64,000 nt of DNA from an uncultured Clostridia bacterium (GCA_934747765.1 CAKVGZ010000002.1:3389-67388); one strand, 5' to 3'; positions 7,257 through 51,622 are shown, counted from the first letter of the stretch. Notes: generated by a model from the sequence alone, not told the origin. Numbers and translations are program-made.

Positions 7257-7736
7257 TTAAATTAAACTTTGATTGAAGTTTGCATGAGTGATTGCAACAG
7301 CAAGCGCGTCCGCCGCATCGTCTGGTTTTGGAATTTTTTCAAGCCCCAAAATTGCCGTGACCATATATTGAACTTGCGCTTTTTCTGCCCTGCCATTTCC
7401 TGTTAATGCTTGCTTTATTTGAAGAGGTGTGTATTCAAAAATTTCTCCACAAGAATGAATCCCTGCAAGAAGAATTATTCCACGCGCCTCGGCAACAGGA
7501 ATGACTGTCGTTTGATTTTTGAAATAAAAAAGTTCTTCAATTGCCATTTGCTCGGGCTTGTATGTGTCAATCAGTTGCTTTATTGCATCATAAATCATTG
7601 CAAGCCTAACAGGGATGCTCTCTTCTTTTGGTGTTTCAATAACGCCATAATCTACCACTTTATATTCCCCGCCTTCATAGTCTATAACTCCAAAACCAAC
7701 TATGCCATAACCAGGGTCAATTCCAAGAATTCTCAT
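7257..7736 (-). CDS. ruvC: crossover junction endodeoxyribonuclease RuvC
   Basis: 'MRILGIDPGYG...GVIE' RuvC N-terminus. ATG 7736 was chosen over the upstream in-frame ATG at 7826, whose extension is hydrophobic junk. Confidence 0.88.
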   Translation of the reverse strand: MRILGIDPGYGIVGFGVIDYEGGEYKVVDYGVIETPKEESIPVRLAMIYDAIKQLIDTYKPEQMAIEELFYFKNQTTVIPVAEARGIILLAGIHSCGEIFEYTPLQIKQALTGNGRAEKAQVQYMVTAILGLEKIPKPDDAADALAVAITHANFNQSLI

Positions 7737-7850
7737 GAAAATATTATAATATAAGATAACAATAAAACCAAATGAAATATCATTTTCAACAAAATTCGCC
7801 CAAATGTACGAATATAAAAATATCAATATGAGAAATATTAGAATATAGTT

Positions 7851-8060
7851 ATGAAAATTCTACTACCTCAACGACTAACAAATTTAAGAATTGCAAGTGG
7901 TCTTTCAAAGCTTCAACTTGCAAATGCAATTTCTGTTTCAGACACAGCAATTGGCAAATGGGAAAATGGTTTGCGTCAACCAAGTTTGGCATGCCTATGG
8001 AAGTTGGCAGACTTTTTTGATGTAACAGTTGATTTTTTAATTGGAAGAGAAGAAGTTTAG
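7851..8060 (+). CDS. XRE-family helix-turn-helix transcriptional regulator (69 aa)
   Basis: 'LTNLRIASGLSKLQLANAISVSDTAIGKWENG' is a Cro/CI-type HTH. A -10 TAGAAT (7839-7844) lies exactly 6 nt before the ATG and there is no SD, so the mRNA looks leaderless. Confidence 0.85.
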   Translation: MKILLPQRLTNLRIASGLSKLQLANAISVSDTAIGKWENGLRQPSLACLWKLADFFDVTVDFLIGREEV

Positions 8061-8098
8061 TGCTATAATTCTTCTTAGAAGGATATAGCGATTTAAAA

Positions 8099-8605
8099 AT
8101 GAAAGAAATGCATAATAAAACTAACGAAAACATTCATTCAAAACACAGGCAAAGATTAAGACACATAATTTATAATTCAGATTTCGACAACTTGACAGAA
8201 ATTCAAATTTTGGAATATGTTTTAACATTATCCATTCCGCGAAAAGACACAAATCCAATTGCACATAGATTGCTCGACGAATTCAAAACAATTGCAAACG
8301 TTTTTGAAGCAGACTATTCGAGTTTGGTTAATATTGATGGAATTGGTTCAGAAACAGCAAAACATATCAAAGCGCTCAGCAAATTGTTTTATTACTATCG
8401 CACAAGTTCAACTGTCAAGAACGGCAAAGTGACCTTGAACACTCCAAACGATTTTATAAAACATTTCACACCATATCTTGAAAGCAAAACTGTTGAAGAA
8501 TTTTATATTGCTTGCTTAACAGCAAACAGCGAAGTGATAAAAACTGCTCTTATTGGAACAAGCACTTCGCGCTTCGGAATCACATTGTTCAAGCAAACTG
8601 TTTGA
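8099..8605 (+). CDS. RadC-like protein, C-terminally truncated (no JAB/MPN active site); possibly a pseudogene
   Basis: 'HRQRLRHII...LTEIQILEYVLTLSIPRKDTNPIAHRLLDEFKTIANVF...IDGIGSETAKHIKAL' matches the RadC N-terminal HhH region. The ORF stops just after 'LIGTSTS', before the expected HNHPSG motif. No continuation was found in other frames. Confidence 0.7.
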   Translation: MKEMHNKTNENIHSKHRQRLRHIIYNSDFDNLTEIQILEYVLTLSIPRKDTNPIAHRLLDEFKTIANVFEADYSSLVNIDGIGSETAKHIKALSKLFYYYRTSSTVKNGKVTLNTPNDFIKHFTPYLESKTVEEFYIACLTANSEVIKTALIGTSTSRFGITLFKQTV

Positions 8606-8632
8606 AATGGCAACTTTTAATAAATCCAAATT

Positions 8633-8668
8633 AACTTCCGACGATAATAAATAAGTCGGAAGTTTTTT
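8633..8668 (+). terminator. intrinsic terminator after the RadC-like gene
   Basis: 10-bp stem AACTTCCGAC/GTCGGAAGTT with a 12-nt loop, followed by TTTTTT. Confidence 0.8.
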
Positions 8669-8710
8669 CGTGCAATTTCAACAAACTTTCGTAGCAAAAA
8701 GACCTCACTA

Positions 8711-8739
8711 TTGACACACGTCCCAATTTAATGTACAAT
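8711..8739 (+). promoter_or_regulatory. consensus sigma-A type promoter of the metallophosphoesterase operon
   Basis: TTGACA (8711-8716), 17 nt spacer, TACAAT (8734-8739). Confidence 0.7.
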
Positions 8740-8766
8740 ATGATTGTTTAATAAAGGAGAGTGATT

Positions 8767-9909
8767 ATGACAAATAATTCAAATGAAGACTTCTCTGGGG
8801 GCGAGAAGATAAGCAACAAGAAGAACCTAGGAAGCGACGTTTTCAGACTTGAAAAAAGACTTTATGAAAAAGGCAACCCAATTGCAAAGGCGTATGATGA
8901 GATTGTGAAAAGCGAAGCACCAAAGCCAATCAACCACCTTTTCTACGACCTTTCAGACACAGACCATTTTGATTTGTTGGTTTTAACCGACAACCACTGG
9001 GGCTCGATATCTTCGCATTTTATGGCAACAGTGGCAGCCCAAATGATGGCAAAATATGTTCCTTCAATATACATAGGATATAACGGAGATAACAGAAACA
9101 ATGCGCTCAACACAGAGCAATGCGTTTCAAGTCCACTTGACAATGCGCTTTCTCCAGTTATTGAATTAAAACTTTGGTATGATGTTTTGGCAGATCCAGT
9201 TATCAGAGAAAAGGTTCTGTTCATCAATTCAGGAAATCATGACAATGGCGAACGAACAAAAGACATTGGAACAGATATTCTTGCAACAGCTTTTGCTGGC
9301 ACACCATATTTCGAGAGATATTCTCGTTTTGCAACGCTCTTAACAGTTCGTCTAAAAGCAGACAACAAGGTTGGCAAAGTTGGCTATGAAGATGTTAAGA
9401 TTTATATCGACCATGGCAATGGCCTTGTTGGAGGCGATGGAAACAAATTGGATGCAGGAATGAAACTTGCAAGACAATATGGTGCGCGAATTGCAATTTT
9501 CGGCCACGTCCACCAAGACATGTCGGCAGACTATCGCGTTGAAAATCTCGTTGACCCAAATGGAAGCAAAACAGTGAAGAACGACCTGACATGCATAGTT
9601 CTTCCAGCCACCTTAGGTCAAGAAACTTATGCTCTAGACAAGAGATATGAAACTGCTCCAAGCGACTTGAAATTGATTCGAATTGGAACAAAAGAAAATG
9701 ATTATCTTCTAGGTTCAACTCAAAGAGAGCGTCGCACTCTTCCAAAAACTTCAATCTATTGCGATTGCACTCCTATTCCAAATAAACTTTGGAAGTTTGC
9801 AATGAGTGAAGCAAACAGACTTCGTGAAAAGTTTGAAAACATTCAAAGCAACACAAATTTGGTCAACAAAAAACTTAAAGATATAATCGAAACATATTAT
9901 CAAAATTAG
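8767..9909 (+). CDS. calcineurin-like metallophosphoesterase (Mre11/SbcD-type motif set)
   Basis: All five motifs are readable: 'LVLTDNHWG' (DxH), 'YNGDNRN' (GD), 'NSGNHDNG' (GNHD), 'IYIDHGNG' (H) and 'IFGHVHQD' (GHxH). The ATG at 8767 lies 6 nt after AAAGGAGA; the ORF-track start at 8761 is a GTG abutting the SD. Confidence 0.75.
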   Translation: MTNNSNEDFSGGEKISNKKNLGSDVFRLEKRLYEKGNPIAKAYDEIVKSEAPKPINHLFYDLSDTDHFDLLVLTDNHWGSISSHFMATVAAQMMAKYVPSIYIGYNGDNRNNALNTEQCVSSPLDNALSPVIELKLWYDVLADPVIREKVLFINSGNHDNGERTKDIGTDILATAFAGTPYFERYSRFATLLTVRLKADNKVGKVGYEDVKIYIDHGNGLVGGDGNKLDAGMKLARQYGARIAIFGHVHQDMSADYRVENLVDPNGSKTVKNDLTCIVLPATLGQETYALDKRYETAPSDLKLIRIGTKENDYLLGSTQRERRTLPKTSIYCDCTPIPNKLWKFAMSEANRLREKFENIQSNTNLVNKKLKDIIETYYQN

Positions 9910-9919
9910 GAGATGACGT

Positions 9920-11062
9920 ATGGCAAATCTTGACAGAATAATTTCTAAAGGCTATCAAAACAGGCTAAAAAAAGAAAGAGAAACAAAAGGTCTTTATGAC
10001 ACAATTTATGTGCCAGAAAACCAAAAAACAATAAATCTTCTTCCAATCCAAAATTTGTTTTATGGAAACGACAAGTGTCCCCCACGATTGGAAATATTAC
10101 TTGACCACATCAAAAGAATTAACGATTTAGAAGAAGGTGCTTTCTTCATTGGCGGAAATTTGTTCTATTATCCAGCAGGCAACACAGAAAAGAAGGAAAA
10201 TCTTGCAAAAGGTTACATAGACGACGTTTCAGAAATATTGCGAGTTGCCGACAAGAACAAAATTTTGTTTATGTATAACGGAGTTAATGAAGGAAAGTTC
10301 ATTAATGACAGAACTTTGAAATATCCAATTGAAACAAGCAAAATTGTGGCTCAAAATTTGGGCATAGAAGACAAGTATTATGATGACAACAAAGCAGAAA
10401 TAACTTTTGTTTTCAACAACGCATTAACAAACTACAGTCAAGAAATTTTGAAATGTTTGTTCACAAGCCAAGGTCCAATTTCAACCACAACAAATGCAAT
10501 TGCAACAAAACTTAACAGCATTGCAAACAGCAACATCAACAAGGGCGTTATAGTGGACACAAGTTCTTCAAAATTTTACACTAAAAAGAAGATTGTCAAT
10601 CGTTCAAAAGACCCTCTAACTTCAGTCTATCAAGACTTAACCTTGATAAGCACAGCAGGCTACACATCAATGCCTCAAGTTGCAACTTCAAAACAAATCA
10701 ATGAATATGCTTTGAATGAGAGATATATTGAGCTCAAAATTGAACAAAAGAACCCTGTGTTCCACCAAGATTCAATAAGAGCAACAAATACAATCAAAGA
10801 TGACGAATTTGATAGAACAGCAACTTGCCTAACAATTGGCGTAAATTACGATTTGTATTTTGATGAAGAATTGTTCAGAAGATTGAATGATGTTTTGTTT
10901 GAAAATGTTTATACAAAAGAAAGCCTCAAAGGAAAACTGGAAGAAAAGAGTGAACAAAACTTGCACGAATCAAGCAAAGAAATTTATAACGAAATGAAAG
11001 AAAAGCAAAAGCAAGAAAACAAACCAAAATCTATAGGACCAGCACCATACGTGTTTGAATAA
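9920..11062 (+). CDS. degenerate (probably catalytically inactive) paralog of the upstream metallophosphoesterase
   Basis: Similar size. Motif positions are decayed: 'LLPIQNLFYGN' replaces DxH, 'FFIGGNLF' replaces GDxxD and 'YNGVNEGK' replaces GNHD. It shares 'EYALNERY' with 'TYALDKRY' in the upstream protein. SD TAGGAGAT. Confidence 0.55.
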   Translation: MANLDRIISKGYQNRLKKERETKGLYDTIYVPENQKTINLLPIQNLFYGNDKCPPRLEILLDHIKRINDLEEGAFFIGGNLFYYPAGNTEKKENLAKGYIDDVSEILRVADKNKILFMYNGVNEGKFINDRTLKYPIETSKIVAQNLGIEDKYYDDNKAEITFVFNNALTNYSQEILKCLFTSQGPISTTTNAIATKLNSIANSNINKGVIVDTSSSKFYTKKKIVNRSKDPLTSVYQDLTLISTAGYTSMPQVATSKQINEYALNERYIELKIEQKNPVFHQDSIRATNTIKDDEFDRTATCLTIGVNYDLYFDEELFRRLNDVLFENVYTKESLKGKLEEKSEQNLHESSKEIYNEMKEKQKQENKPKSIGPAPYVFE

Positions 11063-11070
11063 GGAGAAAA

Positions 11071-11331
11071 ATGGAATTAGGAATTGAAACAAGGGGCACA
11101 AAAAATTATTGTAAAACTTGTGGGCACGAACTTAATATGGATGTGCAAAATCAAATATACAATTTTTGTCCATTCTGCTCTGCTCCGCTGAATCTTGTTG
11201 CTTTCAACTTTGTTAAAGAAAAAGAAAAAAGCATAAAATTCCAAGCAGTTGAAGAAATCATTCACATGACTAAACGAAAAGAAGTGTTGGAAATATTAAA
11301 AGAATATCTTGACAGAATTTCAATCGAATAG
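11071..11331 (+). CDS. small zinc-ribbon protein (86 aa)
   Basis: 'CKTCGHE...(18)...CPFCSAP' gives two CxxC knuckles. SD AAGGAG 5 nt upstream. Last gene of the operon. Confidence 0.6.
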   Translation: MELGIETRGTKNYCKTCGHELNMDVQNQIYNFCPFCSAPLNLVAFNFVKEKEKSIKFQAVEEIIHMTKRKEVLEILKEYLDRISIE

Positions 11332-11368
11332 TCCTATATCAAAAAATTAAAGCATAAAATACCCATGT

Positions 11369-12115
11369 ATGAAAATATGTGGGTTTTTTAATAAAAGAAA
11401 AAAGAAAAAATTATCGCCAAAATCTTTCAGAAATATCTTTGCAAACGTAATAATAGGCTGTTTGCTTATTGGTTTGTTTGCACTAACATACACGGGCGGA
11501 ACATTGAATGCTTCTTCACCTTCAAAAGAAGAAGCGGTTTATCATGGCAATATAAATTCAAAAAATATTTGTTTGATGATAAATGTTTATTGGGGCAACG
11601 AATATCTCGACTCAATGCTTAAAACTTTGAAAGACAACAATATTAAAACAACGTTTTTCGTTGGAGGAACTTGGGCAAACCAATACCCTGACCTTTTGAA
11701 AAAAATATATGATGATGGCCATGAAATTGCCAACCATGGATATTATCACAAAGACCATAAAAATATTTCTTATGAAAAAAATAAAAAAGAAATTGAAGAT
11801 AATCACAATTTGATCAAAAAATTGCTTGGTTATGAAATGAAATTGTTTGCTCCCCCAAGTGGGTCATATTCGCAAACCACTTTGGAAATTGCAAAGGACC
11901 TTGGCTACACCACAATAATGTGGACGCGCGACACAGTTGATTGGAGAGATAAAGATGCCAACACAATTTATCAGCGTGCAATCAAAAATGCATCTGGAGG
12001 CGATTTAATTTTAATGCATCCAACCGAAAAAACCGCTGAAGCCCTTCCTAAAATAATTAAAAAATTAAAAAATGATGGATTTAATTTAACAACTGTTACA
12101 GAATGTTTGAAATAA
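11369..12115 (+). CDS. membrane-anchored NodB-type polysaccharide (peptidoglycan) deacetylase, PdaB-like
   Basis: N-terminal TM segment, then 'TFFVGGTWA', 'HEIANHGYYHKDH', 'LFAPPSG' and 'MWTRDTVDWRD' (NodB homology motifs). There is no obvious SD and the ATG lies in a weak hairpin, so the start is uncertain. Confidence 0.8.
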   Translation: MKICGFFNKRKKKKLSPKSFRNIFANVIIGCLLIGLFALTYTGGTLNASSPSKEEAVYHGNINSKNICLMINVYWGNEYLDSMLKTLKDNNIKTTFFVGGTWANQYPDLLKKIYDDGHEIANHGYYHKDHKNISYEKNKKEIEDNHNLIKKLLGYEMKLFAPPSGSYSQTTLEIAKDLGYTTIMWTRDTVDWRDKDANTIYQRAIKNASGGDLILMHPTEKTAEALPKIIKKLKNDGFNLTTVTECLK

Positions 12116-12216
12116 AAAAATAATAAAATTAATAAATAAATAATAAAAAAATAAGTTTTTTAATTAAAATTAACGAAAAAATTAATATTTTTTAAATAAT
12201 ATAAAAAATAAATAAT

Positions 12217-12250
12217 AAAAAACGGAGCAAAATGCTCCGTTTTTATTTTT
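12217..12250. terminator. bidirectional intrinsic terminator between the deacetylase and the holin genes
   Basis: Stem ACGGAGC/GCTCCGT with loop AAAAT, flanked by an A-run and a T-run. Confidence 0.75.
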
Positions 12251-12258
12251 TCAGATAA

Positions 12259-12597
12259 TTATTTTTCTTTAATATTTTCTTCAATTTTTTCATTTTTTTC
12301 TTCAGTATTTTCTTCTTGGGTTTTTTCGTTTTCAGCCAATTCTTCTTGAATTTCTTCACCAAGAATTTTGCTATTATTGTCGTCTTCATCATCAGACTCA
12401 TCGTTTGTTCCTTTGTTATTTGCAGGCATTGTAACAACGCCCAAAACAACAAGCAACCCAGCAACAGCCATGATAATGTCGTTAATCAATTTTCCATCGG
12501 CAATAAATCCAACTGCTCTACCAATAGTTTCAATGAGCACAACAACGGCACCTGAAAGACTGACCCAAAAACTGTAATTTTTGAACAAATTTTTCAT
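12259..12597 (-). CDS. phage holin, LL-H/phi-LC3 (Phage_holin_1)-like, with acidic C-terminal tail
   Basis: 'KNYSFWVSLSGAVVVLIE...IMAVAGLLVVLGVVTMPANNKGTNDES' follows the family pattern KN..FW...(TM)...LLV.LGI..DPTTKG.SDS. Strong SD GGAGGAGGAG. ATGA overlap with the upstream gene. Confidence 0.65.
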   Translation of the reverse strand: MKNLFKNYSFWVSLSGAVVVLIETIGRAVGFIADGKLINDIIMAVAGLLVVLGVVTMPANNKGTNDESDDEDDNNSKILGEEIQEELAENEKTQEENTEEKNEKIEENIKEK

Positions 12598-13022
12598 AAC
12601 TCCTCCTCCTTTGGAAAAACAATTTTCTTAATTTCCTTAACGTCATTTTTAACGCCTTTGACGTCAGCCGAAACTTTTTTTATCATTTTTGAATGACTTT
12701 TCAAACTTGCATCAATCGACTCAATTGATGCTGAAGTTTTTTCAATCTTTCCGCTCAGCGAAGATGTTTGTTCTGAAACATGATTTATAATCTCTCTGCT
12801 TTCATCAAGGTCGTCCTTAATCGAGTCGACAGTGTCTTTAACATCTTCGACTTTATCGTCAAGATGAGTAACAGTTCCCAAGTTTTTGTTTAAAGAACTT
12901 ATTGTGTCTGTATATTTCTTTTCTCTTTTTGAACTGTCTTTCAAAAGATACATTAACAGCCCAACAAAAAGCGTTGCAAAAATTCCGTTAGATATGACAA
13001 TGTTTATAATATCTTGCCACAT
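12594..13022 (-). CDS. BhlA/UviB-family holin-like protein with extended coiled-coil tail
   Basis: The N-terminus 'IVISNGIFATLFVGLLMYLLKDSSKREKKY' resembles BhlA/UviB ('..QGPFAVLF..LLFYVLKE..KRE.KY'). Confidence 0.6.
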   Translation of the reverse strand: MWQDIINIVISNGIFATLFVGLLMYLLKDSSKREKKYTDTISSLNKNLGTVTHLDDKVEDVKDTVDSIKDDLDESREIINHVSEQTSSLSGKIEKTSASIESIDASLKSHSKMIKKVSADVKGVKNDVKEIKKIVFPKEEEL

Positions 13023-13028
13023 TACATT

Positions 13029-13952
13029 TTAGTCCTTTCTGCCCAAAATTTGTGCAACAATTGCTGGATAATAATTTCCTAATAAATTTGTGTACACTTT
13101 TTCTTTCTTCACTTCTTCAATTGCTTTGTCTTTTGGAAGTTTCATCAAATAGTCTTTAACAACATCAAATCTTTCTTTCAAAATTTCTGCAGTGAACTTT
13201 CTTTCCCCAAGTTTTTCTTTTAAAGCAAGAAGTTCTTTGTTCTTTTTTTCAATTCTGTTTTGTTCTGAAAGATTTATTTTCTCTTGTTTAATTCGATTCT
13301 CTTCTTCAAGTTTGTCAACATTTTTGTTAAATTTCAAAACTTCTTCTTGTTGTTTTGCAATTTCTTTGTTGATGCTTGCAATTTTGTTGTCAAGTTTTAA
13401 GGCATAAGAAATGTCAAAACTTCCAAGAGCGTTGTCTTTTTGTTGCTCCAAAATTTCACGTTCATTTTCAAGCTTTGAAACTTGCTTTTTGAAATCGTCT
13501 TCAATTTTTGAAAGTTCAGAATTTTTTGCCCCTTCAATTGCATTAACTGCATCTTCAAAAATTGATGAACGAGAAATTCCTTGTTTGATGGTTTTGTTTG
13601 TTGCTTTTCGAAGTGAGTTGGCATAGTCGCTGAAAACTTTTTCAACGTCTTCGTTTCTATCTTCCTCAAGGTCAAGGGATTTTGAATCAAGTGACGAAAA
13701 TTTTGTGTCGTAGTTGTCTTGTATCTTTTTCAATCCATTTTCTTTTTCAGCTTTCAGCAAAGATTCGGCTTCCGATTTAATGTCATCCTCGCTTGGCTTT
13801 TCGAATGTTTTCTTTTCCAATCCCAAAGAAGTAATTTCGTTTGGAGTGAACTCTTCAAGCGAATATTTTTTGTCAATTTGACCAAGCTTCTCCATAACTT
13901 CTTGTTGGTCTTTATCTAATTCATCATCTGAAAAAATTTTATAATTGTACAT
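13029..13952 (-). CDS. coiled-coil structural protein of unknown role (307 aa from ATG 13952)
   Basis: Perfect SD (CCTAGGAGGTG, then 6 nt) before ATG 13952. An alternative start at 14033 forms an ATGA overlap with the upstream stop. The sequence is dominated by K/E heptad-like helices. Confidence 0.55.
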   Translation of the reverse strand: MYNYKIFSDDELDKDQQEVMEKLGQIDKKYSLEEFTPNEITSLGLEKKTFEKPSEDDIKSEAESLLKAEKENGLKKIQDNYDTKFSSLDSKSLDLEEDRNEDVEKVFSDYANSLRKATNKTIKQGISRSSIFEDAVNAIEGAKNSELSKIEDDFKKQVSKLENEREILEQQKDNALGSFDISYALKLDNKIASINKEIAKQQEEVLKFNKNVDKLEEENRIKQEKINLSEQNRIEKKNKELLALKEKLGERKFTAEILKERFDVVKDYLMKLPKDKAIEEVKKEKVYTNLLGNYYPAIVAQILGRKD

Positions 13953-14029
13953 GCTTACACCTCCTAGGTTATTAAAATTTTGAATGTTTTTGTCTTTAAT
14001 TGCCTTCTTGGCTTGCGTTGTGGAAATTG

Positions 14030-15538
14030 TCATCTGCTAATTCCAAAAGTGATTTCAGGTGCAGAAATATCTACCAAACTTCCAATTGTTTCAATCTTAA
14101 ATTGGAACATTTCTCCTTTCAAATTTGGATAGAACACAGAAGTGACATCTTTGCCTTTCACTTCAAAGCTTTTTTCTTCCACGTCTGTCTTTATCTTCAC
14201 AACGCAATCTTCCTTCGTGAGCAAAGTCACCTTTTCAATCTTTTTGATTTTGTCTGGAAAACCCAAATTTGAATATGATGATGCCCAAACTTTCTTAAGT
14301 GCAGTTCCAAACACTTTTCCACTGTGGTTCATTTCGCCAAGTTTCTTTTTGTGTTCGTTGTTAAAAAGAACTGCAAGTTTGTTAACTGTTTCATATTCAA
14401 TTGAGCAAAGAGATTTAAGGTCAACTCCTCTTGTCAAAGAAATATCCCCTGTCTTAAGGTCAAGTTCAATCAGCGAATTATTGACGTAGCCTCCCATGTA
14501 ACCTTCGCACCCAATAACTTCGCCGTCATCATACTTCAAACGACATCCGAGATAGTATTTTCCGTTGTGATAAGCACAACAACAATTGTCGTTGTTTTCT
14601 GCAAATAATGATTCAATGTTTAACGAAAGTTTTGTTGCAGAATATCCGTTGAAAGAATATATTCCATCTCTGGAAAGGAACATAATTCTGTCACCACAAA
14701 CACAAACAGAATTTCCATATATCTTTCCGCTTGTGACAAACACACTAGACAAGTTAAATTCAGTTTGGTCGCCATAAGCCGACAATCTTGAAATTCCATA
14801 TTGTTTGAAAATATAGACATAATCGTTGAAACTGACAACTTTTTCCAAACATCCGCGGTCATCAATTATTTCGATATAACCTGCTTCGTTTTCCCCCGTC
14901 CAGTTTGTTGGGTCAAGGTTTGCGCTGAACAAAAGTTTGTTTCGTTTTCCTTCTTCAATTGCAAAAACTCTTTCATAGTGTCTGCAAATTGAAATAATCT
15001 TTGGCGCATTGGAATCAAGAGTTGCAATTGACGTTGGATGAAAAACATACATTCCATCAGTTGCAGAAGTTATCAACATAACATCGTTTCCGTTGATGTT
15101 GTAATAAACAGCATTTGGTTCGGATGTGAATGCAAGTTGATTTGTTATGTCTATGTTAAAAAATCCTGGGTCTATGCTTATAATATTTGCAAATTTAACT
15201 TTGTTGTCATGGCTCAAAACAAGCATATTGTCACGGACGTTGTAGGTTGTGTTATAGAATGGAAAAAGCCAAAGTTTGTTCAACTGTGTGAATGTTCCTT
15301 CAACAAACATTTTTCTCATTTCTGGATTTTCGTCGGTTGTTTCGGGAAGATATAATTCGTCAAATCCAATTCCAGTTTGAAGAGCCCCACGTTTGAATAT
15401 GTAATTGTATGTGACTTTTGCATATTTGTAGGGCAAGGAATTTTCGTCTGTTTCAGTGTTTATTCCATACTTAAAAGTTGAAAGAGTGAGTTTGTAGGTT
15501 GATTTGTTTTTTAAAAGAAGTTTGTTTTCATAAATCAT
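14030..15538 (-). CDS. large beta-rich virion protein, possibly a tail hub/nozzle (tubular-protein-B-like propeller)
   Basis: 502 aa. SD GGAGGTG 6 nt before ATG 15538, which forms TAATG coupling with the upstream stop. Repeated 'G.IY.F.G..' beta-blade-like segments. It occupies the position of gp12 in a T7-type gene order. The functional call is positional. Confidence 0.35.
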   Translation of the reverse strand: MIYENKLLLKNKSTYKLTLSTFKYGINTETDENSLPYKYAKVTYNYIFKRGALQTGIGFDELYLPETTDENPEMRKMFVEGTFTQLNKLWLFPFYNTTYNVRDNMLVLSHDNKVKFANIISIDPGFFNIDITNQLAFTSEPNAVYYNINGNDVMLITSATDGMYVFHPTSIATLDSNAPKIISICRHYERVFAIEEGKRNKLLFSANLDPTNWTGENEAGYIEIIDDRGCLEKVVSFNDYVYIFKQYGISRLSAYGDQTEFNLSSVFVTSGKIYGNSVCVCGDRIMFLSRDGIYSFNGYSATKLSLNIESLFAENNDNCCCAYHNGKYYLGCRLKYDDGEVIGCEGYMGGYVNNSLIELDLKTGDISLTRGVDLKSLCSIEYETVNKLAVLFNNEHKKKLGEMNHSGKVFGTALKKVWASSYSNLGFPDKIKKIEKVTLLTKEDCVVKIKTDVEEKSFEVKGKDVTSVFYPNLKGEMFQFKIETIGSLVDISAPEITFGISR

Positions 15539-16107
15539 TAAATCCACCTCCGTTTTGGCAAACGAATGTCGGATTTTTTGCGTGATGCAATGATAAGTCC
15601 GTCTTTAAATCTCTTTTCCCAAATTGACGCGTCGTCGTGAAGTCCACAAATAAACGAATATTCCATGGCCACGCCATAAGCAACAACTCTATCCGAAATC
15701 TTTTGTGAAAATTGTTCCATTTCAGAACTCAAATTTGAAAGCGCTGTTGGCTGAAACGAATAAGTTACTTCAACATCTCCGTCAATTGTTTCAATATATG
15801 AAGGAAAAAGTTTATAGTTGGTTTTAATGCCAAACTTATCTTTAACTTGCAAAACATCTATCAAGTCTTTCGAAAAACTTGAAAGTTGAATTTTTCCATT
15901 AACTGGAGTTAATTTTTCTCGATTGATGAGCGGAATATAATCGGATGCAATCTCACTGATAACAAGATTAAAACATCTCAAAAGGTGTTCAAGTTCTTTT
16001 GTTTGAGAACTTGTTGCCGTTTCTTGACCGTCCAATTCGGTAACATCCAATAACTCATCTTTTTGAAGAAAAACGCAAGCAGTTTTAATAATGTTTTTTG
16101 CCGTCAT
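15538..16107 (-). CDS. virion protein, possibly a head-tail adaptor (189 aa)
   Basis: SD AAAAGGAGAAAAT before the ATG. Size and position downstream of the capsid gene match an adaptor (T7 gp11-size). No motif recognised. Confidence 0.3.
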   Translation of the reverse strand: MTAKNIIKTACVFLQKDELLDVTELDGQETATSSQTKELEHLLRCFNLVISEIASDYIPLINREKLTPVNGKIQLSSFSKDLIDVLQVKDKFGIKTNYKLFPSYIETIDGDVEVTYSFQPTALSNLSSEMEQFSQKISDRVVAYGVAMEYSFICGLHDDASIWEKRFKDGLIIASRKKSDIRLPKRRWI

Positions 16108-16127
16108 ATTTTCTCCTTTTAAATTTT

Positions 16128-16451
16128 TTAATATTTAATTTCTTCAAGCAATCTGTCCTTTGCTTCATATAAAATTCTTTTGTTGTTTCTTTCTTCTAAA
16201 ATTTCATTTTCTTTGTCTATTTCTTTAATCAACTTTTCTTTGTTTTCAACTTTCGTTTTGTTAACAAAATCGATTGTTCTTGCATCAAGATATTGGAAAG
16301 GGACAGTTAAGCAATAACTGTCCCCTATCTGACCAACATTGTGAACTTCGAATTTGTTTGTTTTTGTGTTATAAAAAACACGATAATCCTTATCAATTTC
16401 TTTTAGCCTTTGACAAATAAACAAAACATCATTCAAAATTTCAATTTTCAT
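16128..16451 (-). CDS. hypothetical phage protein (107 aa)
   Basis: Intact ORF, tightly packed between the capsid and adaptor-size genes. Confidence 0.5.
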   Translation of the reverse strand: MKIEILNDVLFICQRLKEIDKDYRVFYNTKTNKFEVHNVGQIGDSYCLTVPFQYLDARTIDFVNKTKVENKEKLIKEIDKENEILEERNNKRILYEAKDRLLEEIKY

Positions 16452-16468
16452 AACCTATTTTTTAACCT

Positions 16469-17686
16469 CTATGCTGTCGCATCTGTCGTTGTGGTAGAAG
16501 CAAAAGGATTTGTAACAGTTGACGAAATGCCCGAAATTTTTCCTTGAGCATTAGGTTTGTTGCAAATAAGGTCAGCATATTTAACAAGTGTAGCTGAATA
16601 TGTTGCTTCGTTTGCGTTTTGTTTGATAACCTTTCCATCATCTCCTTCAAGCCATTTCCAATCGCATAGTTGATGTAAAGTGAATTCATCAGTGTTAAGA
16701 AGATACATTTCGTCTTTTTTAACAAATCTATCTGCATAAACAGGAATTCCATTGTATGTGATTGCTTTGTATCCGCCAGCAAGGTCCATAACATCAATGT
16801 TTCTTTTGTAGTATGACAAATATGTTTGGTATGCTTTTCTAACGTCACGTGAACATGTGATGAAGTTTGCGGATGTTCCACCAATTTCTTCCAATGAATC
16901 TAATCCAGCTTGAATTGTTGCATCAGAAATTTCTTTAGTGGTTGAATCTTTGTATGGAGTGAGCCAAGGATAGTTAGCTTTTGTGAGTCCATAAAGTGAA
17001 GTGCCTGTTCCGAAGATAGCGCCAAGACCTGTTATTTCAAGGCCTTTAGAATTTTGAACAAACACTGTGTAATCTTTTGCAACTGTCAATCCAGAAGCAG
17101 CAGTGTCAAGATAGAACTTATTGTTAGCTCTATCAACATAAGAAATTCTGTGTCCGCTTGAAGCAGGAACTTTTGTGGCAGAATTATAAATGTCAACAAC
17201 CATGCCTTCAATCAAATTTCTGACGCTGTCAACAGTTATAGCACCATCGCTAGAACTAAAAGCCGTCACAGTTGCCAAAAGACCTGAGCCGTCGCCATAC
17301 AACATTCTTCCAAAGTTGAAACTGCTTGCTTTAACAAGTCCTTCCATTTCAGCATTTAAAAGGTTAACAAAAGCACCTGCGTTGTTTGCAGAAGCTCTCA
17401 TAGCTTTGTCTGAAATAGAAATTTTTCCGTAAAGGTTTTTAAGGTCTGTAACAAATTGCACATATTGGTTTTCTGCAGCATTTGGAAGAGAACCAGTTTC
17501 TGTTCCAGCGCCAATTCCGCCGTTAATTCCATAAGGTGCAAGTTTGATAATTTGTTTTCCCCAAACATCAGATGTAGATTGTTCAATCTTGCTGAGAAGA
17601 GGGTTTGCATTTGTGTTTAATTGATTTGCAACAACGCCCAAATAAACATTTTTAAGAGCATTGCTTGCGCTTGTTAATGAAACCAT
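16469..17686 (-). CDS. phage major capsid protein (HK97-fold expected)
   Basis: 405 aa, immediately after the scaffold-like and portal genes. SD TAGGAGAT. Composition and segments such as 'ISISDKAMRAS...GAFVNLLNAEMEGL...RMLYGDGSG' are typical of major capsid families. Not verified by a search. Confidence 0.65.
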   Translation of the reverse strand: MVSLTSASNALKNVYLGVVANQLNTNANPLLSKIEQSTSDVWGKQIIKLAPYGINGGIGAGTETGSLPNAAENQYVQFVTDLKNLYGKISISDKAMRASANNAGAFVNLLNAEMEGLVKASSFNFGRMLYGDGSGLLATVTAFSSSDGAITVDSVRNLIEGMVVDIYNSATKVPASSGHRISYVDRANNKFYLDTAASGLTVAKDYTVFVQNSKGLEITGLGAIFGTGTSLYGLTKANYPWLTPYKDSTTKEISDATIQAGLDSLEEIGGTSANFITCSRDVRKAYQTYLSYYKRNIDVMDLAGGYKAITYNGIPVYADRFVKKDEMYLLNTDEFTLHQLCDWKWLEGDDGKVIKQNANEATYSATLVKYADLICNKPNAQGKISGISSTVTNPFASTTTTDATA

Positions 17687-17708
17687 TTTTATCTCCTAGT
17701 AATAAATT

Positions 17709-18380
17709 TTAGTTTTTAAAGAATTTTTCAGCCAATGCTTTCGCATCGCTGAGATTGTTTGGTTTGCTTGTTTTGGTCAGCAAACTTATTCCACCTTTGA
17801 TTCCGCTTCCGATAACAGGCGGAGCCTTTCTGATTTCATCTAAATAATTTCCAATAACTTTCTTTTTAACGTCGTCGTTAGAAAGAACAAATTTCTCCAT
17901 GAACGAAGACTCGCTTGCAAGTTTGTCGGGTGTTTTGAAATTTTTGGATAACACCCTTCCCCATGCAATTTCCAACATATCGGGCGAATTTCGAAGGTTT
18001 TCATCTTTCAAAATTTCGTTAGAAATTTCACGCGAAAATTCTTTGGCTTGCTCGTTTTGCACCAAAAATTCTGCAACACGAGTTCTCCAATCTTCATTTT
18101 CATAAGCCGGAGAAACAGGTTTTGTTTCATCTTCCGAAGTTTCATGCGTTTCTTTTTCGGCAAATTCTTTTTGAATTTCGCTTAATTTTTGGCATTTTCT
18201 TGTGAATTCTGCTTGAAGATTATTGTACGCGTTAACAAGATCTTCTGCACACGAGAATTTGCCGAATGGGGAGCCCTCCTCTTGCGACGTAGTGGCACCG
18301 CTTTTTTCATTTTCAACAATCCTTCCTAATGCTTGCTCGCTTTGTGATGGTTGTTCCCCAGTTTCAAAATTTTCTTCCAT
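17709..18380 (-). CDS. capsid scaffolding-like protein (223 aa, acidic, helical)
   Basis: Lies between the portal and capsid genes. E/D/K-rich and predicted helical. SD TGGAGAAAA. Confidence 0.5.
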   Translation of the reverse strand: MEENFETGEQPSQSEQALGRIVENEKSGATTSQEEGSPFGKFSCAEDLVNAYNNLQAEFTRKCQKLSEIQKEFAEKETHETSEDETKPVSPAYENEDWRTRVAEFLVQNEQAKEFSREISNEILKDENLRNSPDMLEIAWGRVLSKNFKTPDKLASESSFMEKFVLSNDDVKKKVIGNYLDEIRKAPPVIGSGIKGGISLLTKTSKPNNLSDAKALAEKFFKN

Positions 18381-18395
18381 AAATTTTCTCCATTT

Positions 18396-20282
18396 CTATT
18401 TATTTTCAATTGAACTTTCAATTGCTTTCATTTGCTTGTGAATTCTTATGTGTTTGAGCACAGTTTCAATTAATTCAGGATTTGTTTCAGCTTTCTTTTC
18501 TGCATCGCGGCCAAGCAAGAATGCAGTGTGCTCAGTTATGTGAATGTCGTGGTCGTCAACTTCCAGCGGACTAACCTTCTTTCCTTCAAGGAATTTTATG
18601 TTCTCGTTGGAAGCTTTTTTCAAATGTAATTCATTTATGTCTTGCGCATTTTCCCAAACACCAAATCCCAAAAGGTCAAGGGCTTTAACTCTCATTCTGT
18701 TAGAAAGTTTTCCGTTTTCGTCGTATAAAAGCCCCGCATTCAACAAATCAAACACCATGCTACGCTTTTGAGCAACACTTTCGCCAACTTCGTTGCCTGT
18801 TTCAAAAATAATGTCATCGCTCGATATGTCTGATGCGTTGAAATAGAACACCTCAACATCTCCATTGTCACCAACAATTTTTGAAAGTCTAGGAACAGTT
18901 GCATATTGCCTATACAATCTCAAAACGTGCTTAGCCATTGTTTTAATTGCTTCGCGAATCTTTTCTGCTGTGACCGAAATTCTTGTGTCGTCTTGTTCCA
19001 CCAAAACTTGAAGTGCAACACCTGAAAGTTGTGAATAGCTTGCCACAGAATTTCTGAGTAAATCTGAAACACCACTTATGTAACTGAACTCATTCAACAA
19101 AATTGCTTCTTCTGCACTAAAATCAACTGGAACACGGTCAAAGTTCATGAATTTAGGCGGGGTTGAACCTTGTCTGTAAATCAAAACTTTGCCTGGCGAC
19201 AATCCGTCGTCTTCCAAATTGTCTGTATCAATCGAACCATCCTCAACGGTCAAAACTCCCATCGAGAGCCTGTTCATAAATTCATGCTTTCTGTTCTTCA
19301 ATGTGTTATATGAACGTTGAACAGGAATCAATCTTTCAATGATGCTTGAGCCCCAGAAACAACCAGGGTGTTCAATGCAAGTTTGTCTTATGAAAGGAAA
19401 AGATCTGTCGCCGTCGTTTCCATTTAAATATGGCAGTTCCGACAGATGCACAAGCTTGTCGCCCGCCACTATAATCAAACGTCCGTTAGGAAAATCAACT
19501 GTTGGACTTTCATATTTTTCAACAACAATTGCATAATTGTTTCTAACCCCGCTAACCACTTTTCCCGCGTTGCCAAAGTATCCGTATCCGCCAATGGCCT
19601 GAACATTGTCAAGTGAAAACACATTGATGTCTTCGCCTTTAACGTCAACACCCCAAATGGATTTTATGTCATCAACATGGTAAGCTCTTGCATGAATGAT
19701 AGACTTGCAGTCGTTTATATCGTTGCAACTTGAACTTTCAGGATAAATTTCGAATGGTGGACAAACTGTAACTTCAATTTCTCCAGTTGCAACTTTTCCT
19801 TTTTCGTTGCTCGTCAGAACGTTTCCTTTGCTGGAATTCCATGCAACTTTGTAAAAACTTGTTCCGCAAACTTCACTCCAGTTGTTTGCTTCGGAAATCA
19901 CTCCGCTCACACAGAGTTTATTGTAGATTGAATTCACAATCTTTTTCGAAACAGTTGCAGTTTTGATATCACGTTCATCACCGGATGCAGGAACAACAGT
20001 CATTGTTGGTTTAAGCGTCAAAAGTTTGGCAAGCCTTGCTTCAATAATTGGTGCAATATGGTTGTAAACTTCGCGTTCTTGCCAGAAAAACTGTTTGTCA
20101 TATTCTTCAACTTCCCCTGAAGGACCAATTGAACAATATTGATTTCCCATCAAAAAGTTCATGTTAAGTTCCCATTGTGCTTCGAAACTTTTTCTGTCTT
20201 CTTGACGTTTTTTGAAATCTTCAAGAACTTCTCTGACCAAATCCTCTTCAAAAATTTCTTCTTTTTCTAATTCTTTTTTCAT
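18396..20282 (-). CDS. phage portal protein
   Basis: 628 aa from ATG 20282 (SD TTGGAGGTAAG). The N-terminal 'RKSFEAQWELNMNFLMGNQY...REVYNHIAPIIEARLAKL...P...VVPASGDERDI' matches the common portal signature R..fE..W..N..fy.GnQw...N.i..ive. Confidence 0.7.
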   Translation of the reverse strand: MKKELEKEEIFEEDLVREVLEDFKKRQEDRKSFEAQWELNMNFLMGNQYCSIGPSGEVEEYDKQFFWQEREVYNHIAPIIEARLAKLLTLKPTMTVVPASGDERDIKTATVSKKIVNSIYNKLCVSGVISEANNWSEVCGTSFYKVAWNSSKGNVLTSNEKGKVATGEIEVTVCPPFEIYPESSSCNDINDCKSIIHARAYHVDDIKSIWGVDVKGEDINVFSLDNVQAIGGYGYFGNAGKVVSGVRNNYAIVVEKYESPTVDFPNGRLIIVAGDKLVHLSELPYLNGNDGDRSFPFIRQTCIEHPGCFWGSSIIERLIPVQRSYNTLKNRKHEFMNRLSMGVLTVEDGSIDTDNLEDDGLSPGKVLIYRQGSTPPKFMNFDRVPVDFSAEEAILLNEFSYISGVSDLLRNSVASYSQLSGVALQVLVEQDDTRISVTAEKIREAIKTMAKHVLRLYRQYATVPRLSKIVGDNGDVEVFYFNASDISSDDIIFETGNEVGESVAQKRSMVFDLLNAGLLYDENGKLSNRMRVKALDLLGFGVWENAQDINELHLKKASNENIKFLEGKKVSPLEVDDHDIHITEHTAFLLGRDAEKKAETNPELIETVLKHIRIHKQMKAIESSIENK

Positions 20283-20329
20283 CTTACCTCCAAATAATTT
20301 TTTATATAAAGCAAATGTTTTGCGATATA

Positions 20330-20617
20330 TCACTTTTTATAATTTTCAAGAATTTCCAGCAATCTAAGTTTTTCTCTCATAAGTTCTTCCTCTGTCATGT
20401 CGGAATAAACTTCGGTTTTTGTTTCCAATTTGTCCAAAAGCATTTTTACCGCACTTAAATCTGGTGAAATATGTTTTTTTGTCACTTTTCGTTTGCTGAG
20501 TTTGTAATCTCCACCTTCGTCCAAAACAAACTCTTCAACAACTTCGTTCGTATCATATCCGAACGCTTTTTTATATAATGCGTTCGTAATTTCCTTTTCC
20601 AAATTCTTTTTTCTCAT
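20330..20617 (-). CDS. terminase small-subunit-like protein (short, 95 aa)
   Basis: 'ALYKKAFGYDTNEVVEEFVLDE.G.YKLSKRKVTKKHISPDLSAVKMLL' resembles the '..LYKRA.GYEYEE...(x)..K..PPD..A..WL' block I associate with Firmicute phage TerS proteins. First gene of the structural operon. Start taken at ATG 20617. Confidence 0.4.
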   Translation of the reverse strand: MRKKNLEKEITNALYKKAFGYDTNEVVEEFVLDEGGDYKLSKRKVTKKHISPDLSAVKMLLDKLETKTEVYSDMTEEELMREKLRLLEILENYKK

Positions 20618-20623
20618 AAAAAA

Positions 20624-20680
20624 ACACCACACAATTTGAATTTTGTTCAAATTATATGGTGTCTGATGGTTGAAAGTAAA
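20624..20680 (-). promoter_or_regulatory. putative promoter of the structural operon overlapped by an imperfect palindrome (operator candidate)
   Basis: TTTACT (20675-20680), 18 nt spacer, TATAAT (20651-20656) on the minus strand. Inner inverted repeat AATTTGAA/TTCAAATT (20633-20640 and 20646-20653); outer inverted repeat ACACCA/TGGTGT (20624-20629 and 20657-20662). Confidence 0.4.
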
Positions 20681-20693
20681 ATATGTCTGCCAA

Positions 20694-21245
20694 CTAAATA
20701 TCTTTTTTGTCAAAAAGGTCCGAAATCATCAAAGCCTTAATAACAGGAGGAAGTTCGTTGATTTCCTCTGCTAGTGATGTTTTTTTTGTTAAAGAAGTTC
20801 GCTTGAGTTCTTCCAAGAAATCTTTAATCTCTTCATCATCGCCGTCAACACTTCCATCCGAAATGAAATCGAAAGACGGTTTATCAACAATTCTTGGCGA
20901 CCTTCTAGGAATGTATTCGCTTCCAAACAGGTCGTCAAAATCCTGATTTATCGTCAAATCGCTGTCATCACTTTCTTCAAAGTAGTTTTTAGGTTTTTCT
21001 TCAAACAACTCTTTTATTTCAAGATTTTCCTCGTTAACTTTTGTGTCCGGATCTTCTTTGCTTTCAAATAGCCCGCCTGGATTTGTTATCACAGTTGGAT
21101 TGTTTGATTCAATTTTCTTGGTTTTCTTATGCTTTTCTTTCTTTTCTTTTTTTGGTCTTGATGCCAGTTTTTTAAATAAAGGAAAAAGATAATAAATTGT
21201 TATGCCAACAACCAAAACCCCAAGTCCAACAAAAAGCCAAACCAT
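20694..21245 (-). CDS. hypothetical membrane-anchored acidic protein (183 aa), last gene of the nfeD-floA operon
   Basis: N-terminal TM segment, a K-rich linker and a D/E-rich body. SD GAAGGAGGGG. Confidence 0.6.
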   Translation of the reverse strand: MVWLFVGLGVLVVGITIYYLFPLFKKLASRPKKEKKEKHKKTKKIESNNPTVITNPGGLFESKEDPDTKVNEENLEIKELFEEKPKNYFEESDDSDLTINQDFDDLFGSEYIPRRSPRIVDKPSFDFISDGSVDGDDEEIKDFLEELKRTSLTKKTSLAEEINELPPVIKALMISDLFDKKDI

Positions 21246-51272: not shown

Positions 51273-51622
51273 TGGTGGAGACGGTGGGAGTTGAACCCAC
51301 GTCCGAAAAAGCATGAACGGCTTTTCTACGTGTTTAGTTCATTTGAGACTTTCATTTTAATGCACATAATGAACAAATGTGAATCAAACTAGTCTTTTTT
51401 TTGTCGTTTCAGTGTCCAAAGACAAAACACTGAACGTTCCCCACGTTTTTGATGCCCGCTAGCGAATTTGTGGGAGAACTCGCTCGGACAGTTGCCAACT
51501 AAGCAACAACAGCAAGATTTTGATTATCTGCGTTTAATTTAGTTTTTTCGTTTTAAGGTAACCGACTACCACACGCTTTGCACCCCTCAAAAGCATTCCC
51601 CGTCGAAACCATTTACGCCCCC
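51273..51622 (-). ncRNA. ssrA: tmRNA (SsrA)
   Basis: 5' end GGGGGCGUAAAUGGUUUCGACGGGG and 3' end GGGUUCAACUCCCACCGUCUCCACCA. The inferred tag frame GCA GAU AAU CAA AAU CUU GCU GUU GUU GCU UAG encodes ADNQNLAVVA. Lies 18 nt downstream of smpB. Confidence 0.92.

Follow-up and report, generated by a model that had tools for sequence, protein, structure and literature searches.

A podovirus-type particle module conserved in uncultured Christensenellales-like Clostridia: a candidate split gene transfer agent-like element

Between ruvC and the nfeD–floA gene pair of an uncultured Clostridia bacterium (GCA_934747765.1) lies a cluster of ten genes for the head, the short tail and the holins of a podovirus-type particle. 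We analysed this cluster, hereafter the module, in a 64,000-nucleotide stretch of its contig (CAKVGZ010000002.1:3389-67388; hereafter the window, whose positions are used throughout) and in related genomes. The module is very probably a domesticated element kept by selection, not a decaying prophage, and is best explained as short-tailed-phage-derived and vertically inherited by a large clade of uncultured Christensenellales-like Clostridia. With less assurance, we favour a complete model in which it belongs to a split element resembling gene transfer agents (GTAs) that would package host DNA with its own large terminase subunit (TerL), encoded at a second locus. More tentatively still, the family might be an order-wide Christensenellales-like viriform present in hundreds of species, podovirus-type, with split loci and possibly a shared TTGGCAG-type promoter, and domesticated independently of FpGTA, the element of Faecalibacterium prausnitzii (PMC12946183).

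The interval that holds the module is limited on one side by ruvC (7257–7826; PF02075, 2e-52) and on the other by nfeD–floA (22831–21301; FloA, 1e-135), and consists of two unrelated blocks, one on the plus strand (7851–12115) and one on the minus strand (12259–20617). The phage-type part is the minus-strand block of about 8.4 kb; the 12.8 kb of phage-type DNA given in a first-pass annotation of the stretch was overstated, as 7851–12115 is a plus-strand block outside the module. In transcriptional order the module encodes a protein resembling the small terminase subunit (TerS-like, 95 aa), a portal (628 aa), a scaffold-like protein (223 aa), a capsid protein (405 aa), p107, p189, the nozzle p502, a DUF7934 protein (307 aa), a BhlA holin and a second holin. 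All ten open reading frames (ORFs) are open where they had been annotated. Of the translational couplings proposed with them, the 4-nt ATGA overlaps at 12594–12597 and 14030–14033 agree with the ORF coordinates; a p189/nozzle junction at about 15538–15547, near the TAATG proposed at 15538, also follows from the coordinates. A bidirectional terminator-like hairpin with a 12-bp stem (12218–12244) closes both the module operon and a convergent deacetylase gene. The GC content of the module is that of its surroundings.

In agreement with the first-pass annotation, no interval ORF of at least 85 aa matched a TerL, integrase, replication, endolysin or fibre family in Pfam or PHROGs, and recombinase families were likewise unmatched. 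A tblastn search of the whole window with the TerL of a relative gave no match, and the interval contains no pseudogene traces of TerL, fibre or tailspike, endolysin, lysogeny or replication genes. A search for att-like repeats around the module found none, as had been claimed for flanking direct repeats, and no tRNA gene was found near it.

To place the module among its relatives, the species representatives of GTDB (one genome per species) were searched with the capsid gene, which yielded at least 404 matching stretches. The best 80 of these and 12 others, 92 in all, were mapped with every window protein; these and further related loci are numbered with an L below. The best 80 lie on 80 different contigs, and their capsid proteins are 62–92% identical to that of the window. 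The gene order TerS, (60-aa zinc finger), portal, scaffold, capsid, p107, p189, nozzle, (DUF7934), BhlA, holin, with optional genes in parentheses, is invariant. The six large genes all have the expected length in 58 of the 67 fully covered loci, the exceptions being mostly scaffold-length variants or contig edges, and the nozzle ranges from 482 to 509 aa. In a protein collection, more than 6293 relatives of the capsid protein were found; the best 120 are 66–100% identical and come from metagenome-assembled genomes (MAGs) labelled Christensenellales, Clostridia or Firmicutes, on contigs of up to 271 kb. The 2.9 million contigs of IMG/VR gave 23 matches, all to the same module, and 50,697 phage records contained no complete phage with this capsid lineage, the best match being 28% identical. 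The closest phage capsid proteins are those of Arthrobacter and Microbacterium phages (26–28% identical).

The genes beside the module differ between clades. They are nfeD–floA in the clade of the window, aspS, a methyltransferase gene and ileS in L002, ileS and genes for leucine-rich-repeat proteins in L009, and ychF, an ABC transporter gene, rpsT and gpr in L004, L012 and L080. No integrase or replication gene was found in the related loci with different neighbours. Two kinds of gene near the module were considered and rejected: a 397-aa gene often seen there, considered as a component, belongs to a host ABC-transporter cluster, and Xre-type helix-turn-helix (HTH) genes, considered as a conserved repressor, are not orthologous and are inconsistently placed between loci. 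Two loci stand apart. A MAG labelled Spirochaetales (L074; JBFXFT010000001.1, 172 kb) has a module with sig, TerL and TerS, whose capsid protein shares 63% identity with the window's; this may reflect mislabelling, mis-binning or transfer outside Clostridia. The IMG/VR contig L113 (IMGVR_UViG_3300023371_000131, 54,951 bp) begins inside a capsid gene (62% identical), and none of the downstream module genes was detected in the following 10 kb; the locus may have been rearranged, or the contig may be chimeric.

In nine species of the window's clade the module occupies the same place beside nfeD, floA and the gene for a 183-aa protein (p183). We compared the window with L014, whose capsid protein is 92% identical. 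The dN/dS values were 0.029 for the portal, 0.033 for the nozzle, 0.041 for BhlA, 0.044 for TerS, 0.074 for the capsid protein and 0.145 for the scaffold-like protein, with the module genes other than the portal, nozzle, BhlA, TerS and capsid genes at 0.12–0.155; dS is near saturation in most comparisons, so these values are approximate, though all are far below 1. Across the ruvC–nfeD interval, whose comparison in related genomes had been proposed with the first-pass annotation, the module thus spans 0.029–0.155 and the flanking ruvC, floA and nfeD 0.020–0.025. The dS values of the module genes (0.36–1.7) are similar to those of the flanks (0.75–1.7). Pairwise protein distances of capsid, portal, scaffold and p107 correlate with those of floA plus nfeD (Pearson 0.81–0.88), and the sister pairs are identical in the two sets (window–L014, L015/L077/L016 and L019–L020), with L018 as an outlier. 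Judged by these substitution patterns, the module genes are under purifying selection and, within the window's clade, are transmitted vertically with the chromosome. With its syntenic position, matching dS and congruent distances, the module shows the pattern of long residence and co-divergence with the host, which is not the pattern of a recently truncated prophage or of a mobile satellite.

The head genes, all on the minus strand like the rest of the module, are recognisable to different degrees. The portal gene (18396–20282) starts with an ATG behind a GGAGG Shine–Dalgarno sequence and encodes a 628-aa protein of the P22/SU10 type (PF16510 P22_portal, 1.6e-17; PF23899 SU10_portal, 2.9e-8; phrog_156, 5e-37). 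The 405-aa product of 16469–17686 matches the major capsid families NCBIfam NF033394 capsid_maj_Podo (1.9e-78) and phrog_14242 (3.6e-59), so both of these earlier calls were confirmed. For the TerS-like protein (20330–20617, 95 aa), a small ORF does lie upstream of the portal gene as annotated, and its support is a weak match to phrog_309 (terminase small subunit, 2e-6); the gene is directly upstream of the portal gene in 80 of the 92 loci. The 223-aa product of 17709–18380 has no family match, and what stands of its previous designation as scaffold is the gene position between the portal and capsid genes, which is kept in every locus mapped. The 107-aa protein p107 (16128–16451), also without a family match, has the same position in 88 loci, which suggests a head completion or connector protein. 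The 189-aa protein p189 (15538–16107) is a putative head-to-tail adaptor by position: in all loci its gene immediately precedes that for the nozzle, and the protein measures 178–206 aa. Its single-sequence AlphaFold model was unusable (predicted local distance difference test, pLDDT, 34) and did not verify the adaptor role, and profile searches of the p189 and nozzle (p505) families against PDB sequences gave no matches.

The 502-aa protein encoded at 14030–15538 had been annotated as beta-rich and nozzle-like, and its predicted structure bears this out. The AlphaFold2 model (pLDDT 85.8, predicted template-modelling score 0.86) is a beta-propeller of the P22 gp10 class, and its best Foldseek match is 9nwi_Y of Pa223 (7.7e-21, TM-score 0.70). 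Further matching entries are 8zkk_O and 8jov_A, and the podovirus nozzles matched include those of VP1, GP4 and, more weakly, T7 gp12; the P22 gp10 entries 8eap_D, 8u10_1 and 9jg6_a match at about 1e-13. On the strength of this model, the protein is a podovirus tail nozzle.

The next gene (13029–13952; ATG behind GGAGG, the ORF being open from 14033) encodes a 307-aa coiled-coil protein of the DUF7934 family (PF25588, 7.4e-35). Of the loci searched, 47 gave a tblastn match to it, and one clade lacks it; we propose that its product acts as a plug or needle associated with the nozzle, or in ejection. A database protein of 824 aa (P0507) consists of a full-length nozzle, 42% identical to that of the window, fused to a DUF7934 domain. 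The fusion is a hint of physical attachment between DUF7934 and the nozzle, or else an artefact of a frameshift, the contig being 2.9 kb long. In the large clade that lacks DUF7934 (L044, L051, L055, L062, L066, L070, L079–L088 and L091–L093), about 100 nt separate the nozzle stop from the BhlA start. In L078 and L089, an additional gene, about 1.5 kb long, lies between nozzle and BhlA. A search of the available literature found no paper that mentions DUF7934 or describes this element.

Two holin genes end the module. The first (12594–13022) encodes a 142-aa BhlA-family holin with a C-terminal coiled coil (PF10960, 1.8e-13; phrog_2429, 1.5e-17), which makes the earlier BhlA/UviB-like assignment solid as to BhlA, and is present in 75 loci. 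The second (12259–12597, 112 aa, with an acidic tail) is present in 69 loci and is Phage_holin_1-like (phrog_297, 1.7e-9), its match to PF04531 Phage_holin_1 (3.4e-4) falling just under the Pfam cut-off. As Phage_holin_1 is the sole holin family listed for it in Pfam, the label LL-H-type that it had received is unsupported.

The missing packaging ATPase appears in the relatives. In L004/L005 and L012/L013 (Candidatus Caccopulliclostridium gallistercoris), among others, four extra conserved genes precede the module, and L004, L012 and at least 20 other loci have TerL, a sigma-r4 gene, a 266-aa gene and a Glug protein gene upstream of it. TerL (475–478 aa) matches Terminase_6N (2.6e-17), Terminase_6C and phrog_2 (3e-30). 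The sigma-r4 gene (170–216 aa) is activator-like, with sigma-70 region 4 (PF08281, 2e-8) and matches to the transcriptional regulator/activator families phrog_36/248. The divergently transcribed 266-aa gene (257–268 aa) has a signal-peptide-like N-terminus and no family match, and the Glug protein (731–1126 aa), which carries the GLUG motif, stands out as the candidate fibre or receptor-binding protein (RBP). In L043, L049, L050 and L052, this big protein is encoded at the opposite end of the module. TerL abuts TerS directly in L046, L074, L078, L082, L089 and most IMG/VR loci. The conservation of TerL equals that of the capsid protein, with more than 5222 relatives, the best 120 of which are 68–96% identical and lie on contigs of up to 443 kb.

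The island and the module also occur apart. In L010/L011 the four-gene TerL island stands alone among housekeeping genes (mreB, parA, degV ... dinB, tex, clpC), with the structural genes absent within 10 kb of it. On CALVYS010000003.1 (64,041 bp), the structural module lies at about 10.5–18 kb and the island at about 55–60.5 kb, beyond the holin end of the module; a gap of about 37 kb separates them and together they span about 50 kb. Thus contiguous forms, of about 14.4 kb, and split forms that retain TerL both exist in the relatives. The housekeeping neighbours of the island were searched for in the window and are not there, the sole match being an S1-domain hit. Given the strong selection on the portal, TerS-like and nozzle genes and the situation in the relatives, we infer that the TerL partner locus exists in the window's own genome. 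The premise of the first-pass annotation that TerL is lacking therefore holds for the interval and the window, and probably not for the genome.

The region upstream of TerS has features that may relate to such a split. Reading of motifs and a hairpin points to a putative promoter and insulator region at 20622–20690 (minus strand). In the 76 nt between p183 and TerS lie TTGGCAG, a −35-like TTTACT, an 18-nt spacer and TATAAT (20680–20651), followed by a hairpin (20664–20622) with a 19-bp stem and a T-run, which runs across the −10 box and stops 4 nt short of the TerS ATG. This promoter and hairpin arrangement is conserved in the window's clade. Of 53 loci in which TerL is not adjacent, 33 have TGGCA[GC] in the 160 nt before TerS, as compared to one of 24 in which it is, against a background expectation of 0.07 per 160 nt. 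These counts are inflated by phylogenetic non-independence; the motif is nonetheless found in several chromosomal contexts. Its positions cluster at −66 to −77 from the TerS start, and loci with the motif include L009, L014–L020, L022, L042, L051, L066 and L080. We hypothesize that the structural locus needs a dedicated promoter once separated from the TerL/activator locus, and that the hairpin might stop read-through from floA. A sigma-54 reading of TGGCA[GC] was dropped: the spacing to the downstream TTG is 1–2 bases too long, and TATAAT lies at sigma-70 distance.

The 183-aa protein p183 itself (20694–21245, minus strand), between floA and TerS, combines an N-terminal transmembrane helix with a highly acidic tail. 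Restricted to the window's clade, it evolves fast (28–58% identity, dN/dS up to 0.46) and is probably part of the nfeD–floA operon and not of the module.

These features can be combined into a working model in which the regulation, the packaging of host DNA and the transfer to recipients are all inferred. A sigma-region-4 (RinA/ArpU-like) activator, encoded beside TerL at the partner locus, would turn on the promoter before TerS. The TerS-like, portal, scaffold and capsid proteins would assemble proheads, which the lineage's own TerL would fill by a headful mechanism; in many relatives this TerL is encoded elsewhere on the chromosome, together with the 266-aa secreted protein and the large Glug-motif fibre-like protein. 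The proteins p107 and p189, the gp10-like nozzle and the DUF7934 protein would close the portal and form a stubby tail, and the two holins would lyse the cell and release the particles. As integrase, replication and lysogeny genes are absent and the parts lie tens of kb apart in the split genomes, such an element should not propagate itself, which makes it GTA-like, that is, a viriform.

The nearest counterpart is FpGTA (PMC12946183, Nat Commun 2026), whose particles of about 40 nm carry about 8.5 kb of host DNA. Its operon I encodes TerS, TerL, portal, a small protein, the capsid protein, X, adaptor, nozzle, X and, as an abundant component of the particles, a coiled-coil protein annotated 'TolA'. 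The genes for baseplate, fibre and RBP proteins, a holin and an endolysin lie in a second operon at a distance of 125 kb (PMC12946183). Both elements have a Gram-positive gut clostridial host and a podovirus-like particle type, predicted here from the genes. They share the order from portal to coiled-coil protein (RCH50851 down to RCH50844 as compared to the window ORFs), with a coiled-coil protein at the same position and an equivalent of p189 called adaptor. They also share a small TerS-like protein, the lack of integrase and replication genes, and two chromosomal loci, and our nozzle model matches 8eap, the PDB entry cited for the FpGTA nozzle. On the other hand, the FpGTA capsid protein is annotated N4-gp56, whereas that of the window matches NF033394 and has no N4 match, a comparison of annotations and not of sequences. 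The capsid protein of the window and ten distant relatives match only NF033394 in NCBIfam, and no Faecalibacterium names occur among the distant capsid representatives, all of which are NF033394; this evidence leans towards a lineage distinct from FpGTA over a common origin. Whereas the TerL of FpGTA lies inside operon I, that of the present family travels with activator-like and fibre-like genes; a position of TerL beside the portal, not found in the window, is seen in some relatives (L046, L074, L078, L082, L089 and the majority of IMG/VR loci). The holin and endolysin genes of FpGTA lie with the fibre genes in operon II, whereas our holin genes follow the tail genes, and a Prp-like annotation between its portal and capsid genes contrasts with the 223-aa protein without a family match.

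Among classical GTAs, host-DNA packaging and transfer have been demonstrated for the RcGTA type of Rhodobacterales, BaGTA and VSH-1 (PMC9662315). They resemble the present element in their tailed-phage-derived genes, vertical inheritance, distribution over more than one locus and purifying selection, and the replication/integration module is absent in both; they differ in being siphovirus- or myovirus-like and in living in Alphaproteobacteria and spirochaetes, whereas ours is podovirus-like and clostridial. Of the features that define viriforms (PMC9662315), the window's element has the genes of a tailed-phage (Caudoviricetes) particle and, within its clade, vertical transmission, and is likely unable to package its own complete genome. 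For particles that bring essentially random host DNA to recipients, the GTA-type packaging of 4–7-kb fragments described for Christensenellales MAGs (PMC12946183) is an indirect sign, and for induction in a small subpopulation under host control there are a candidate promoter motif and a candidate activator gene. Among cultured phages, Arthrobacter Jasminevirus and Microbacterium phage Shocker come closest (42–47 kb, 22–28% identical). With P22-like and related podoviruses the module shares a P22/SU10-type portal, an HK97-class 'Podo' capsid protein, a gp10-like nozzle and the order terminase, portal, scaffold, capsid. However, Jasminevirus and Shocker are autonomous, with replication genes, endolysins and fibres, all lacking in the 8.4-kb element.

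Several observations weigh against a GTA-like element with its own distant TerL. TerL, the activator and the fibre-like gene are not in the 64 kb of the window, and the island is also absent from the roughly 3.4 kb to its left, up to the end of the probable source contig (ENA scaffold_229, 138 kb), and the roughly 5.5 kb to its right; the window's clade may have lost these genes. To the right, beyond the window (L122), LigD, a KwaA-domain protein and SecDF are encoded. No endolysin was recognised anywhere in the system. The module occupies different chromosomal sites in different clades, so that it may have been mobile between sites in the past. The near-saturated dS makes the estimates of selection approximate, the analogy with FpGTA, the one relative that has experimental support, is not based on homology, since the capsid families differ, and the particles of the present family are a prediction from its genes.

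The first-pass annotation had offered three hypotheses: a satellite dependent on a helper, a domesticated particle, GTA-like or nanocompartment-like, and a recently truncated prophage. A domesticated particle that does not transfer DNA, whether a PBSX-like killer, an altruistic-lysis or bacteriocin-like device, or, in the window's clade, a DNA-free capsid or compartment left after TerL loss, is unlikely. It would agree with the failure to find TerL in or near the window and with the filing of the BhlA family in PHROGs as 'involved in bacteriocin production or immunity', and the FpGTA authors leave a PBSX-like role possible for their element (PMC12946183). However, the strong purifying selection on the portal, TerS-like and nozzle genes is hard to explain without DNA packaging and ejection, and the TerL of the family is as conserved as its capsid protein. 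Nor does the module contain contractile-tail or toxin genes: sheath, tube, tape measure and baseplate, the parts of PBSX-type particles and tailocins, have no matches, and the tail is that of a podovirus nozzle. A domesticated GTA-like particle fits best among the earlier hypotheses, the nanocompartment variant having no positive support.

A capsid-forming satellite, comparable to the capsid-forming phage-inducible chromosomal islands (cf-PICIs), would make its own heads and stubby tails and hijack TerL, fibres and endolysin from a helper podophage. Like a cf-PICI, the module is a small chromosomal island with its own capsid, portal and small terminase genes and no full virion; the three hijacked functions are absent from the locus, its chromosomal site varies by clade, and a helper could complete holins that lack an endolysin. 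This explanation is nevertheless improbable, more so than a non-transferring particle. Satellites have an integrase, att sites, replication genes, helper-sensing regulators and a strain-variable presence, whereas the window and 90 related loci have no integrase, att repeat, excisionase, primase or replication gene or conserved repressor, and the module is syntenic and co-diverges with its flanks across species that are near-saturated at synonymous sites. The TerL and fibre-like genes of the family are chromosomal and conserved, not helper-borne, and no complete phage of this capsid lineage was found in the 50,697 phage records. That the module is a functionless remnant of a recently truncated or decaying prophage can hardly be credited. 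Its gene set is incomplete for a phage, and the neighbouring radC has an internal deletion in this genome, but its ten genes have stayed intact in the window, as have nearly all of those in the related loci, with dN/dS far below 1 and a GC content equal to the surroundings. The gene set of an intact or recently inactivated P22-like prophage, as genes or pseudogenes, is not present in the interval. The related loci, 62–92% identical and in different contexts, are not assembly duplicates of one sequence. The identical order and tightly kept gene lengths in the best 80 of the at least 404 matching stretches, together with the purifying selection, refute the truncated prophage hypothesis.

If the split GTA-like element is active, it bears on several questions. 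Genetically defined GTAs are few and nearly all from Alphaproteobacteria. For gut Clostridia, the first report of a GTA-like element of podovirus type dates from 2026 and concerns Faecalibacterium only (PMC12946183). The present element departs from FpGTA in its capsid lineage, in the organisation of its loci and in its host clade, which is another and a much larger one. GTA-type packaging has been described for Christensenellales MAGs, of 4.1 and 7.1 kb in HGM11616 and 6.3 kb in QANA01, without naming the locus (PMC12946183). The present module, with its clear evolutionary marks of domestication, is a natural candidate for that locus, both concrete and very widespread. Its activity would matter for horizontal gene flow, for the interpretation of viromes, where host DNA would occur in 'viral' fractions, and for prophage-prediction tools, which call these loci proviruses. 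The family also offers natural 'experiments' in its contiguous and split forms and in the presence or absence, by clade, of DUF7934 or of a fibre gene beside the module.

The plus-strand block beside the module (7851–12115) encodes an Xre HTH protein (69 aa), a RadC-like ORF, a 382-aa metallophosphoesterase, a 380-aa protein without a match, an 86-aa Zn ribbon protein and a polysaccharide deacetylase. It occurs only in the window, L006, L014, L019, L020 and L119, outside the conserved module, and its dN/dS of 0.05–0.16 against L014 indicates purifying selection. The 382-aa protein is a calcineurin-type phosphoesterase (phrog_7339, 2e-8), and the deacetylase is membrane-anchored (PF01522, 8.5e-34) and could conceivably act on the cell wall during lysis. 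The block as a defence system was discarded, with no PADLOC match, as was the 382-aa and 380-aa proteins forming a paralogous pair, since they have no mutual similarity. Elsewhere in the window, a tmRNA gene (51273–51622, minus strand) encodes the tag ADNQNLAVVA. The RadC-like ORF (8099–8605, plus strand) has an internal deletion of about 239 bp as compared to the 269-aa RadC of L006 (19045–19854), a genome of the same species. With it the JAB domain is lost and the reading frame shifted, and the resulting 168-aa form is also present on the ENA scaffold_229 (L119).

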